DNA of 64,000 nucleotides from Escherichia phage EP75. Shown piece after piece: positions 7,828-11,882 of the stretch (position 1 is the stretch's first letter; every line of letters starts with the position of its first letter). The stretch is from sequence record MG748547. One strand, written 5' to 3'. The notes beneath the pieces are model-generated. The model was not told the DNA's origin. It worked only from the letters and a program-made list of their open reading frames with translations, and made no database searches. The position numbers were made by a program, and so were the translations under genes.

Positions 7828-9063
7828 TCATCGTTTCAACAAAGACATGAGGTTTACACTGGTCGACTTCGGATTGTCCTCTATATTCCGGACGGGCATT
7901 TTCAGATTAGTGTAAACCTCAGATGGTTCCCAACGCGTACCCTGCTGCAGGTGCCATATATGTAGAGGAACACCCGTTTCAAAGAACACAGGCATCTTCC
8001 ACTTCTGGACGCCAGGAACGTGCCCTGCAGGAGCTTTTTCGCACAACAGGGTATCTGGTAGCCAGAGGGAACGGGCTTCCCATAATGCCTTACAGGAGTA
8101 CTCAGGCCAGATGCGTTCCATGTAGTCGATCTCATCCCAAGTACGCTCGGCATCCCACCCGATGTAACGGGTATTCTTCAGACGGAAGAATTTCTTAAGC
8201 CAACAAGCACCGGAGGTCTCAAAGTTCAGACGATTGATGAACGTGATGTGGCCGAACTCTTCAACGCATTCCTGAAACGCTTTCTCAAGGTCGTTTTCGA
8301 GTATATCACATTCTTCGTCTGTAATAGGACAACCGTTGATCTTTTTCTTCCCGTGCTTGGTCACCCAATCATCACGGTTGGATAAGAACGCCGCGCCGTT
8401 ACGATTGGATTCGCTACCATCACGGTCACGCAACATGAAACCAGGGACGTCTATATCCCATATGTTACCGAAGACCATGTTCAGGGCTTCCAGGAAGTTC
8501 CATGCGCTCAGGCGACCGAAGTATTTCCATGACATCGCCGTATTCCACAGTTCAGTGAACTGGTCTTCCTTGGTAGTGCATTCCAACATCCAACGAAAAG
8601 AATCCATTTGGGTTTTACCACCCAACCAATCGATATAGGACTGAACGCACGGAATCATCTTCGACTTACGATAACGACAATCTGTATCGAAGCGCATACG
8701 ATCAAAGTTCAGGTTATACCAATCAGAAAATCGCTGAAACTCTTTCGGAGATTGTGGGGGTACAGGAAATTCACTGTAAATTGTCCATGGTCCAATCCCA
8801 TTATAGCAACAACCCCACAAAAAGGCCATCCAAATCTTGCGCTCGATCTTCTCGAGCTGTGTGATGCCTTCTGTAACCTCTATGGCATAATCCATCAGAC
8901 GGACTTGCTGGTTATGCTCTTCAGTGTAGGATAGCGCCTCCACCCATGCCTTGAGCAGGTACATGCGATTTTCTGGCTTACGATAATCTACTGCCAGATC
9001 AATCGGGTATTTCCATTTTTCAGGGGCTTTATACCCCTGCGGCATTTTAGAAATGTGTATCAT
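7828..9063 (-). CDS. 411-aa enzyme of unknown fold; candidate DNA-base hypermodification enzyme (possibly thymine pyrophosphorylase-type aminotransferase)
   Basis: large Trp/Cys-rich ORF in the same tightly packed minus-strand operon as a P-loop kinase and HAD phosphatase; function is inference from context. Confidence 0.3.
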   Translation of the reverse strand: MIHISKMPQGYKAPEKWKYPIDLAVDYRKPENRMYLLKAWVEALSYTEEHNQQVRLMDYAIEVTEGITQLEKIERKIWMAFLWGCCYNGIGPWTIYSEFPVPPQSPKEFQRFSDWYNLNFDRMRFDTDCRYRKSKMIPCVQSYIDWLGGKTQMDSFRWMLECTTKEDQFTELWNTAMSWKYFGRLSAWNFLEALNMVFGNIWDIDVPGFMLRDRDGSESNRNGAAFLSNRDDWVTKHGKKKINGCPITDEECDILENDLEKAFQECVEEFGHITFINRLNFETSGACWLKKFFRLKNTRYIGWDAERTWDEIDYMERIWPEYSCKALWEARSLWLPDTLLCEKAPAGHVPGVQKWKMPVFFETGVPLHIWHLQQGTRWEPSEVYTNLKMPVRNIEDNPKSTSVNLMSLLKR

Positions 9064-9245
9064 CCGATTTTACTCCCGAGTTCAACACGGAACGCCAGAT
9101 AGAAGAAAGTGGCGATCGATACTGGACAGATCACCAAGAATGGGCGCTGTTGCACCCCTTCTGTGACCATGACGCCGACCAGCGAAACCGTAAAGATAAC
9201 GAACATCAGCATCATGAAGATAAAATCAACATGCTTGATTTTCAT
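9060..9245 (-). CDS. small membrane protein
   Basis: 61-aa ORF with two hydrophobic helices; overlaps neighbours by 4 nt. Confidence 0.4.
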   Translation of the reverse strand: MKIKHVDFIFMMLMFVIFTVSLVGVMVTEGVQQRPFLVICPVSIATFFYLAFRVELGSKIG

Positions 9246-9612
9246 CTTTCACTTCCTCTACAGGAGAAACAACTTCAGGCTCAGCTTCGGGAGCCAGCTG
9301 AATTTCTTCGGGGCTTACTACGGGCTGTCCCAGAGACCAGATAGGCAGGAAACGACGATCATTCGTCACCAACCAAATTTGCTTGGCGGTTTTCGTCTTT
9401 TCGGAAATAAAATGCTGGGCATTGACCTGGGTACGAGCCAAACCCACCTGACGCCAAGAACCGAAATCCTTAGAAGAAGGATTGGTATTCAGTTGAAATT
9501 GTGGGACGATTTTATTCTGTTCCGGATAGTAACGGACAGCGTTAATCATCTTCGCATCACCACGGTAATCAATAGCAACAGCGACAACGTTGCGTGGAAT
9601 GAGGATTTTCAT
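9226..9612 (-). CDS. hypothetical protein
   Basis: 128-aa ORF. Confidence 0.45.
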   Translation of the reverse strand: MKILIPRNVVAVAIDYRGDAKMINAVRYYPEQNKIVPQFQLNTNPSSKDFGSWRQVGLARTQVNAQHFISEKTKTAKQIWLVTNDRRFLPIWSLGQPVVSPEEIQLAPEAEPEVVSPVEEVKDENQAC

Positions 9613-9613
9613 T

Positions 9614-9817
9614 TTAATTCCTTTTGAAACTCTGAATTATGTTATAGACGAAAGGCGTTAATAAGATAGCACCCCCCAAATAATATAACGCGTAAACGTT
9701 CAATATTTCGGTTGAATCCAACTCAACGATGCCCAAATATTTCATGACACCGACAAGCACAGCTGTGATACACATCACCAATCCGACGAACACAAAATAT
9801 TTAGACATCTGTTTCAT
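9614..9817 (-). CDS. small membrane protein
   Basis: 67-aa ORF, two TM helices. Confidence 0.4.
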   Translation of the reverse strand: MKQMSKYFVFVGLVMCITAVLVGVMKYLGIVELDSTEILNVYALYYLGGAILLTPFVYNIIQSFKRN

Positions 9818-9819
9818 TT

Positions 9820-10725
9820 CTAACCCTTACTCAACAGGCCGAGAAGGGATACAGAGGACTTTGTTACCTCTCCCTTGGCGCTCGCCTTGGTTTTAGATTT
9901 GGTCGCCTTCTCAGGGACTCGATGCGCTAGAGGATCATCCCCACCGACTTCACGCGTCATTGGGTCAGTTTCACAGAATCCGTAAAAATCTTTGATGTCC
10001 AGACCCATGGCGTGAAACTCACCACGCATTTGATGATGAATAGCGTTACCAATCACCCACAAAGGTGCATCAAACGGCATCATGGCTAATTCGCTATCAT
10101 TTCCTGTTTTGAATTCTTGAGTGTTTGTAGACGATTGGCGATACAACACGTCTTGACCGCTGTAATCATTGACCACCACTTCCCAACCCAGCGCCAGCAT
10201 TTCGGCCTTCGACTTCTCAAACTCCTTGGAGTAAGATTCGTTGCGTGACCAGCCGGAATCTCCCGCCTCTTTACCAGAACGCCCACGGATACGAGCGTCG
10301 TACTGGTAGCGGTCAGGGTATGCAAAGTACAGCAGTGCCAGTGATTCAATCGGATAGTTCTTGAACATCCATTCAGGACGCCATTTATCCGACAGCATGA
10401 GGGGTTCACCCTCGCACACCAAAGTGTAACCCTGAGCCAGCCAACCTTTGACCAGATCACGGGCGATATCACCCGAGCCTGTGGCGGCGTGGATGGCGTC
10501 CATGGAAGTCCAGGAAGCCAGGCCGGATTTGTTAGACACAGTATACTGGCCAACGAAGATTAACTTCAGTTCTTCGAACTTCAGGCCGAATGGGCGCGTC
10601 TTGTCACCAATGGTGTAGGTGAGTTCAGTAGGGGTTAGGGTAGTGCGCAGCCATTCGATGAACTGAACAACACGGGTGCCTTTACCCGTGCCAGAGGTTC
10701 CTTTCACTACAATTATTTTAGCCAT
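9820..10725 (-). CDS. P-loop kinase; candidate 5-hydroxymethyluracil DNA kinase (5-HMUDK-like)
   Basis: Walker A VVKGTSGTGKGT at N-terminus; 301 aa; specific substrate is inference. Confidence 0.45.
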   Translation of the reverse strand: MAKIIVVKGTSGTGKGTRVVQFIEWLRTTLTPTELTYTIGDKTRPFGLKFEELKLIFVGQYTVSNKSGLASWTSMDAIHAATGSGDIARDLVKGWLAQGYTLVCEGEPLMLSDKWRPEWMFKNYPIESLALLYFAYPDRYQYDARIRGRSGKEAGDSGWSRNESYSKEFEKSKAEMLALGWEVVVNDYSGQDVLYRQSSTNTQEFKTGNDSELAMMPFDAPLWVIGNAIHHQMRGEFHAMGLDIKDFYGFCETDPMTREVGGDDPLAHRVPEKATKSKTKASAKGEVTKSSVSLLGLLSKG

Positions 10726-11030
10726 TATGCATCTTCCTCAATACGCCAGCTCACACCACCCAACCAGGGAGACCAGAAAACAGCAACCTGTGGGCGATCG
10801 TTTTCTACAAACTTCACTTTATACTGGTCATCAAAGTTATAGAAAATTTCGTCGTCATCAGGTGCCATACCGTTTTCGATCAGAACTCGTTTTAATTCCA
10901 ACGCTGCGCCAACGGAAGTTGGTGGATTCTGATTACGGATGAAGTTGTTTACATGGATAATGATACCATCCATATCACTGTCACCGGAACGCTTGTCAGG
11001 GCTTTCTACAACTTTATTTTGTTCTTGCAC
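10725..11030 (-). CDS. hypothetical protein
   Basis: 101-aa ORF. Confidence 0.4.
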   Translation of the reverse strand: MQEQNKVVESPDKRSGDSDMDGIIIHVNNFIRNQNPPTSVGAALELKRVLIENGMAPDDDEIFYNFDDQYKVKFVENDRPQVAVFWSPWLGGVSWRIEEDA

Positions 11031-11039
11031 GATGTGCTC

Positions 11040-11882
11040 CTATCGGACATATTGATAATGAGAAACCAGGCGATTCACCACTTCATCGAGGTTACGATTT
11101 AAGAAGTCAAAGTGGTTTTGGCCTTCTACATGCTTAATATAAAGCATATCCTCGCAATTCGAAAGATCCAGTTTTTCATAATTGCCCTGAGGGACGAAGA
11201 TGACGAAGATGTTATTCAGGGCACACGGCTCAACATACTTCGGATTGTCGTCGATCAGGACATCGCCAGCAAGCAGATGCTTTTCATCCGTGCTCACGAA
11301 CCCATTAATCAACGATTCAAAGTGATGGTATGTGAACTGACGCTTGCTGCGTTCGTGTTCCGGTTCGCATTTTGTAACTGCCACCATTTCCACTTGCTCA
11401 AACTTCTGAAGGAGAGAGGCCTTTAAATTCGTAAGGAATTCAACAGCCCCTGGCAGTGGTGACATTCTGGAATACAGATCAGGCATACGCCACCAATCCA
11501 TCGGATCACGTCCTGTTGGCGAATCCATCCACTGACCAGCAACGAATACACGGCGCGTTAACCAGGCCGGATGCGCGCGTTCACGCATGAGGATCGCCAG
11601 ATCACCAGCGTGTGACATATAGCACTCTTTGGTGATTGGTTGAAATTCAGATGGGTAGTCGTGACATCCCATATTTTCCGCAGCGGCTTTAGAATTAGAG
11701 ATATTGAACCATTCAACCCACGGCGAAAGGGAATCAACCAGAGTCAAATCCACATCCACCAGAACGCGATATAACCCGCCAATTTTAGAACATGCGTCAT
11801 ACAGACCAACGTGATTATTCATCAGATTTCTCCACTTGATCATAACCAGTTGCGGTGCATTGTTCTTCGGTGCAATCGGCAT
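11040..11882 (-). CDS. HAD-superfamily phosphatase-like protein (possible 5'(3')-deoxyribonucleotidase-type)
   Basis: HAD motif I hhhDxDxT: VLVDVDLTLVDS near N-terminus. Confidence 0.45.
   Translation of the reverse strand: MPIAPKNNAPQLVMIKWRNLMNNHVGLYDACSKIGGLYRVLVDVDLTLVDSLSPWVEWFNISNSKAAAENMGCHDYPSEFQPITKECYMSHAGDLAILMRERAHPAWLTRRVFVAGQWMDSPTGRDPMDWWRMPDLYSRMSPLPGAVEFLTNLKASLLQKFEQVEMVAVTKCEPEHERSKRQFTYHHFESLINGFVSTDEKHLLAGDVLIDDNPKYVEPCALNNIFVIFVPQGNYEKLDLSNCEDMLYIKHVEGQNHFDFLNRNLDEVVNRLVSHYQYVR

Follow-up and report, generated by a model that had tools for sequence, protein, structure and literature searches.

Predicted 5-hydroxymethyl-2'-deoxyuridine DNA kinase and serine:DNA transferase genes beside the DNA polymerase of Escherichia phage EP75

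Introduction

Does the tightly packed block of minus-strand genes beside the DNA polymerase gene of Escherichia phage EP75 (sequence record MG748547) serve the hypermodification of thymidine, and which of its genes would take part? The whole stretch of DNA analysed, here called the window, comprises 64,000 nucleotides (nt) of one strand; an initial annotation of positions 7828–11882 had proposed a candidate operon for thymidine or DNA-base hypermodification with a P-loop kinase, an enzyme of 411 amino acids (aa), a HAD phosphatase and three small membrane proteins. The comparisons reported below indicate that the region is very probably the post-replicative part of the Ackermannviridae pathway for 5-(2-aminoethoxy)methyl-2'-deoxyuridine (5-NeOmdU). 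This system has already been characterized biochemically and structurally in close relatives, and no new enzyme or chemistry is claimed for the window.

Kinase and transferase

By homology, the 301-aa protein is a 5-hydroxymethyl-2'-deoxyuridine (5-hmdU) DNA kinase of 5-HMUDK clade 2, orthologous to gp243 of phage ViI and gp189 of phage CBA120, as the initial annotation had suspected. Its residues 1–300 matched positions 1–298 of the 298-position Pfam profile PF18747 (HMUD2; E 7.2e-150, 498.6 bits, cutoff 25), the Walker A motif GTSGTGKGT noted initially was confirmed at residues 9–17, and no other kinase family appeared in the Pfam search at E ≤ 0.1. Amino acid identity was 87.5% to Vi01_196 (YP_004327565, gp243) at the syntenic position in ViI and 98.0% to CBA120 gp189; the gp numbers used in the literature were taken from the 'orf00NNN' notes in the ViI record. 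ViI gp67 and gp243 both phosphorylate 5-hmdU in DNA, giving 5-phosphomethyl-2'-deoxyuridine (5-PmdU), and Table 1 of the same study lists gp243 as 5-hmdU DNA kinase and gp247 as serine:DNA transferase (PMC8989533).

The 411-aa protein, described initially as Trp/Cys-rich (W 5.4% and C 2.7% by count) and as an amino-acid-transferring enzyme, is by the same kind of evidence an amino acid:DNA transferase (AADT/aGPT-Pplase clade 2) and the predicted orthologue of the ViI gp247 serine:DNA transferase. It matched Pfam PF18724 (Amino acid:DNA transferase, ADDT; E 2.5e-57, 194.7 bits, cutoff 26.2), a domain carried by all 61 of the 61 transferase homologues found, and was 91.0% identical to Vi01_199 (YP_004327568, gp247) and 95.2% identical to CBA120 gp193. 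Profile searches against the 5-HMUDK and aGPT-Pplase families, which had been suggested as a check, were thus positive for the kinase and the transferase. The fold is of the helix–hairpin–helix DNA-glycosylase-like type and nearest to the solved family member. Residues E282 and C287 were invariant (39 homologues) and aligned with E243 and C247 of gp46 from Pseudomonas phage PaMx11; in ViI gp247 and M6 gp51, mutation of the conserved Cys or the nearby Glu abolishes activity (PMC8989533).

Purified ViI gp247 moves L-serine onto 5-PmdU DNA to give O-serinyl-thymidine, and nucleophiles vary within the family between glycine, serine and putrescine (PMC8989533). Given the 91–95% identity to the ViI and CBA120 orthologues, the window transferase would be expected to transfer L-serine through its side-chain oxygen. 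PaMx11 gp46 (PUGT, a 5-PmdU glycinyltransferase; PDB 8z2m; PMC11472151) is a more distant relation, with 12–25% identity and a chain shorter than the window protein by about 120 residues; it uses the N-alpha of glycine, whereas the ViI orthologue, and by extension probably the window protein, uses the O-gamma of serine. Downstream tailoring also differs, with a pyridoxal phosphate (PLP) decarboxylase here and an FAD lyase plus an acetyltransferase in PaMx11. Sequence searches of PDB chains with the kinase and the transferase gave no useful match.

Two metagenomic contigs of about 32–36 kb (L008:6596-9101 and L009:6530-9089) carried transferase homologues of 41–42% identity in a ParB_N – Tet_JBP – P-loop kinase (Ploopntkinase3) – ADDT cassette by a terminase gene, an arrangement that corresponds to the Tet/JBP-initiated variant treated in PMC8989533.

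In RefSeq records of ViI, CBA120, PhaxI and others the kinase is labelled 'guanylate kinase', which is the name of PHROG 4409, and the transferase 'hypothetical protein'; both labels are outdated. Across Ackermannviridae genera the transferase was far better conserved than the kinase (87% versus 45% aa identity in Limestonevirus, 89% versus 74% in Taipeivirus), which suggests faster evolution or exchange of the kinase. In Dickeya phage RC-2014 (Limestonevirus) the kinase DA66_0149 (L005:5341-6834; phrog_15209; annotated 'endonuclease') has its HMUD2 domain at residues 202–496, preceded by some 200 aa that form an additional N-terminal domain; fusion to a homing endonuclease or an error in joining the gene model may account for this. 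Disruption of this kinase by a homing endonuclease, considered when the tblastn alignment began at residue 21, was dropped in view of the full HMUD2 domain.

Decarboxylase and pathway

The PLP decarboxylase, third of the essential enzymes, is encoded 6.5 kb from the block, outside the initially annotated interval. Its core (18392–19576) was 98.0% identical to residues 30–424 of ViI gp226 (Vi01_182), identity to CBA120 gp177 was 93.1%, and the PLP lysine is kept (K92 in ViI, K109 in the window; motif GINGSKLRQ). Purified ViI gp226 decarboxylates O-serinyl-thymidine DNA to 5-NeOmdU (PMC8989533). The N-terminal 30–45 or so residues (19577–19714) were unrelated to residues 1–29 of ViI gp226, the CBA120 protein is shorter (397 aa), and the start codon is uncertain. 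Directly downstream, at 17900–18349 on the minus strand, a 149-aa protein matched Pfam ART-PolyVal (ADP-ribosyltransferase of polyvalent proteins; E 1.6e-10) and DUF3990 and was 98.7% identical to ViI Vi01_183.

The three enzyme activities that make up the post-replicative route are all encoded in the window: a kinase, a serine transferase and a decarboxylase. In the proposed pathway 5-hmdU would stand in for T when the phage DNA is replicated; the dUMP hydroxymethylase is encoded elsewhere in the genome, outside the window. The 301-aa kinase would then use the gamma-phosphate of ATP to phosphorylate 5-hmdU in duplex DNA at the 5-hydroxymethyl group, producing 5-PmdU; the 411-aa transferase would flip the base out, Cys287 would attack C6 and the phosphate would leave to form an exocyclic C5 methylene, to which the side-chain hydroxyl of free L-serine would add, yielding O-serinyl-thymidine; and the PLP enzyme would decarboxylate the serine moiety to 5-NeOmdU. 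The ViI paralogues gp67 and gp160 map outside the window, the end of which corresponds to about ViI position 98,250.

Enzyme activities were demonstrated for the ViI orthologues and the product for ViI and CBA120, where 5-NeOmdU replaces about 40% of T and blocks many restriction endonucleases; the ViI pathway is described in Lee et al. 2018 (PNAS, PMC5889632) and Lee et al. 2021/22 (NAR, PMC8989533), and according to a 2024 review, the pathway genes are conserved across the Ackermannviridae. At 88–98% identity of its enzymes to these orthologues, the phage of the window probably makes the same product.

Allele structure

Window positions 7740–15800 were compared with ViI and CBA120. Over the genes for the polymerase, the lipoprotein-like DUF7292 protein and the HAD protein, nucleotide identity to ViI was mostly 95–100%, with two 300-nt stretches of the polymerase dipping to 84–95%. 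At the protein level the window was of ViI type for HAD and PLP decarboxylase (98–99%) and for DUF7254 (94%), the CBA120 values being 87.7% for HAD, 90.1% for DUF7254 and 93.1% for the PLP enzyme; it was of CBA120 type for the kinase (98.0%), the three small open reading frames (ORFs) between kinase and transferase (100%) and the transferase (95.2%). The window is thus a recombinant of ViI-type HAD and PLP genes with a CBA120-type kinase–transferase module, with a breakpoint near 10730–11030, inside or beside DUF7254.

ViI shares with the window the genus, the gene order, the three enzymes (87.5, 91.0 and 98.0% aa), the catalytic Cys and Glu, the PLP Lys and the polymerase–HAD–DUF7254 neighbours; it differs in that the kinase–transferase segment of the window is another allele with an extra 61-aa membrane ORF that ViI is without. 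CBA120 (an Escherichia phage of the genus Kuttervirus; gp189, gp193 and gp177) has an identical architecture, including the 67-, 128- and 61-aa ORFs.

Alternative readings

Several points weigh against the 5-NeOmdU pathway, or against parts of it. Nucleotide identity to ViI was only 70–89% from the kinase to the transferase, and the match of the PLP decarboxylase to Pfam PALP (fold-type II; E 4.4e-7, 30.0 bits) fell under the 35-bit cutoff. The phage of the window is known here from its sequence alone, activities and product having been measured in relatives. For HAD, the tie to the pathway is a conserved position within one phage family: transferase homologues outside the Ackermannviridae had Tet/JBP dioxygenases and other P-loop kinases as neighbours, with no HAD and no DUF7254, and the five ViI genes that suffice for reconstitution in vitro do not include HAD (PMC5889632).

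Were the 301-aa protein a nucleotide-level kinase, acting on guanylate or on a deoxynucleoside monophosphate (dNMP), the block would be ordinary nucleotide metabolism beside a polymerase, as the P-loop and the name 'guanylate kinase' of phrog_4409, also used in RefSeq for ViI, CBA120 and others, might suggest. This reading is effectively refuted and keeps almost no probability: the sole Pfam match is the full-length one to HMUD2 (498.6 bits), no family of guanylate, dNMP or polynucleotide kinases, of which the last two were the clades that the initial annotation had named as contrary evidence, was found at E ≤ 0.1, none of the seven proteins compared with NCBIfam matched a model there, kinase models included, and ViI gp243 phosphorylates 5-hmdU within DNA (PMC8989533). 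It is also very improbable that the diverged kinase–transferase block installs a different amino acid or leads to a final base other than 5-NeOmdU. The mosaic profile, mostly 95–100% in the flanks against 70–89% in the module, would fit such a change, as would the choice of glycine, serine or putrescine within the transferase family (PMC8989533); but the module is a CBA120-type allele and CBA120 DNA contains 5-NeOmdU, the gp226-type decarboxylase is retained, and the 301-Da nucleoside was measured in several phages, including CBA120, a Vibrio phage and a Taipeivirus (about 16% of T), the last two having relatives with far more diverged enzymes. Low identity to ViI was accordingly dropped as a sign of different chemistry, and since the allele is that of CBA120 and other phages of the family also give 5-NeOmdU, the allele difference is no reason to expect it.

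A wider reading takes all eight genes (lipoprotein, HAD, DUF7254, kinase, the three small ORFs and transferase) as a dedicated operon to which every gene contributes, with HAD dephosphorylating 5-PmdU in DNA and so setting the level of about 40%, and the membrane proteins localizing the machinery. In its favour, the genes lie close together on one strand, separated by small gaps or overlapping slightly, the order HAD–DUF7254–kinase–transferase is kept across Ackermannviridae genera, and HAD-superfamily enzymes acting on DNA exist, the phosphatase domain of T4 PNKP being one. When HAD, DUF7254 and the small ORFs were examined as pathway components, neither co-occurrence beyond one phage family nor a requirement in reconstitution was found, and the eight-gene operon is judged quite unlikely. 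Of the logic proposed initially, the kinase and transferase stand as members of the 5-NeOmdU pathway, and any role of HAD and the small membrane proteins in it is conjectural.

HAD protein

The HAD gene most likely starts at the ATG at 11822, which has GGAG 7 nt upstream and gives the 260-aa product of the ViI and CBA120 annotations; the ORF and its DVDLT motif were present as first described, and a start at 11882 is less plausible. The protein is an orthologue of ViI Vi01_194 and 87.7% identical to its CBA120 counterpart. It matched Pfam NT5C with 31.4 bits (cutoff 24.8), over profile positions 56–143 of 180 only. Its four catalytic motifs (DxDxT, S/T, K and DD) were invariant in 28 homologues, motifs I and IV aligned with mitochondrial 5'(3')-deoxyribonucleotidase, and the fold was nearer to solved deoxyribonucleotidases than to other HAD classes. 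Resemblance to a PNKP-type DNA-end phosphatase was tested, and none was seen. The best structural matches were in the NT5C family (human cdN/mdN; S. epidermidis 3bwv), with which it has the core fold of HAD enzymes and the four catalytic motifs in common; sequence identity is 18–22%, and the insert that separates motif I from the conserved cap segment is longer in the phage protein.

Seven Ackermannviridae genomes were compared, including Kutter-, Taipei-, Limestone-, Milton- and Nezavisimistyvirus and a Vibrio phage, and in all seven the HAD gene lay between the polymerase and kinase genes. Close homologues came from Ackermannviridae-sized or short contigs only, and HAD and kinase are separated by the recombination breakpoint. 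On the strength of the NT5C match and motifs, the family-limited homologues, the HAD-less distant loci, the dispensability in reconstitution and the breakpoint, the protein was assigned as a probable free-nucleotide phosphatase resembling the NT5C-type 5'(3')-deoxyribonucleotidases. Its substrates would most likely be free dNMPs with pyrimidine bases; by hydrolysing dTMP, for instance, it would spare 5-hmdUTP competition from dTTP, a pool-exclusion role drawn from established knowledge of hydroxymethyluracil (hmU) phages. In the library of papers searched, none dealt with a dTMP nucleotidase of phages in connection with hmU or with the HAD protein.

A further proposal is that HAD and the translationally coupled DUF7254 form an unrecognized pre- and co-replicative branch of the pathway. 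HAD, whose cap insert is enlarged, would break down dTMP or adjust the balance of dUMP and 5-hmdUMP, so that all progeny thymine derives from 5-hmdU, and DUF7254 would modulate the site choice of the kinase. We consider this improbable; if true, it would bear on two questions left open in PMC5889632, namely how 5-hmdU reverts to T and what limits hypermodification to about 40% of sites.

Small open reading frames

The stop codon of DUF7254 overlaps the kinase start codon by 1 nt. The protein is acidic and soluble (Pfam PF23912, E 7.5e-48) and was detected in six of the seven genomes; at the equivalent position the Vibrio phage has a protein of weak similarity (BLASTP E 0.009) with no Pfam match. 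DUF7254 homologues fell into 19 clusters, all of them stand-alone proteins of about 100 aa, and the long contigs among them were Ackermannviridae-sized. Fusions to kinases, or linkage with kinases outside the family, were looked for and none was found.

Between kinase and transferase, the 67-aa protein (phrog_4514) has at least one transmembrane (TM) segment, and its ORF is absent from Taipei-, Milton- and Nezavisimistyvirus and from the Vibrio phage. The 128-aa protein (phrog_4163) is soluble and present in Kutter-, Taipei- and Limestonevirus; it is absent from Milton- and Nezavisimistyvirus and the Vibrio phage. The 61-aa protein (phrog_7943) has two TM segments; it was 100% identical in CBA120 and 75% in Dickeya phage RC-2014, where it is unannotated (L005:7392-7574), and it was absent from ViI (a 173-nt alignment gap), Taipeivirus, Miltonvirus, Nezavisimistyvirus and the Vibrio phage. 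Relative to ViI, this ORF is an indel. All three ORFs are missing in Miltonvirus, Nezavisimistyvirus and the Vibrio phage, and there the kinase gene directly adjoins the transferase gene or almost does so; of the seven genomes, three or four were without the small ORFs. The small membrane proteins, too, fall outside the set of five ViI genes that sufficed for reconstitution (PMC5889632), and the three ORFs are regarded as variable passengers.

The DUF7292 protein (Pfam PF23964, E 2.9e-53), encoded between polymerase and HAD, is lipoprotein-like, with a signal-like N-terminus (MKLNKILLVCALAFSTTAC); it was 99% identical to ViI Vi01_193 and was not linked to the pathway.

Locus layout

All ORFs of the initial annotation were found on the minus strand where it had placed them (Table 1). 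The block is tight as described, but overlaps of 1–4 nt do not run throughout, the junctions being −4, −20, +1, +2, −1 and +9 nt. Two of the three small membrane proteins proposed, those of 61 and 67 aa, were borne out, and the proteins of 128 and 101 aa are soluble; just beyond the annotated interval lies a third membrane-like ORF (55 aa, 7622–7789), and the lipoprotein-like gene lies just outside the interval or at its edge.

Table 1. Coordinates of the block and of related genes in the window.
Feature	Coordinates	Strand	Product	Remarks
Transferase ORF	7828–9063	minus	411 aa	
Two-TM membrane ORF	9060–9245	minus	61 aa	
Soluble-protein ORF	9226–9612	minus	128 aa	
Membrane ORF	9614–9817	minus	67 aa	
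P-loop kinase ORF	9820–10725	minus	301 aa	Walker A GTSGTGKGT
DUF7254 ORF	10725–11030	minus	101 aa	
HAD ORF, longest	11040–11882	minus	260 aa (likely gene)	DVDLT; likely gene 11040–11822
DUF7292 lipoprotein-like	ORF 11815–12177; gene 11815–12159	minus	114 aa	
DNA polymerase	ORF 12220–15318; gene 12220–15216	minus		orthologue of ViI Vi01_190
PLP decarboxylase	18389–19714	minus		longest ORF; orthologue of ViI gp226

Every ORF in the block matched a PHROG family (E 3e-32 to 5e-236) and can for that reason be taken as a genuine conserved gene and not a chance frame. The block was matched by 273 phage records, nearly all Ackermannviridae, and the ViI-like context recognized initially holds, with 97.6% nucleotide identity to Salmonella phage GEC_vB_GOT and full synteny with ViI (NC_015296). 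As also noted at the outset, the polymerase gene is the immediate upstream neighbour; its product was 98.3% identical to that of ViI over 998 residues and 99.4% identical to that of CBA120. The gene is intact in the window, whereas in the Vibrio (L004:1-5014) and Dickeya (L005:1-3747) phages HNH or homing-endonuclease genes divide it into several parts.

Since a scan for promoters and terminators gave promoter-like sites no more numerous than in shuffled sequence and no convincing internal terminator, the operon boundaries are undefined. The gap between polymerase and DUF7292 (12187–12223) holds a GC-rich hairpin (AGGGGGAATTATATCCCCCT) with a T-run on the plus strand only; the best promoter-like site of the minus strand (TTGATT-18-TATAAT, 10/12) has its TATAAT in the hairpin loop. 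Three tRNA genes (Tyr-GTA, Asn-GTT and Met-CAT) lie at 21775–22590 on the minus strand, and a cluster of tRNA genes occupies the corresponding position in CBA120.

Significance

The value of the window is that of a correctly recognized instance of a known pathway, by which the misleading annotations 'guanylate kinase' and 'hypothetical protein' are corrected. The remaining biology concerns the role of the conserved HAD nucleotidase and of DUF7254 beside the kinase. 5-NeOmdU shields the DNA of Ackermannviridae from most type II restriction enzymes and possibly from other defences, and it matters for the host range of phages used in the biocontrol of Salmonella and E. coli and for the sequencing and cloning of their DNA.

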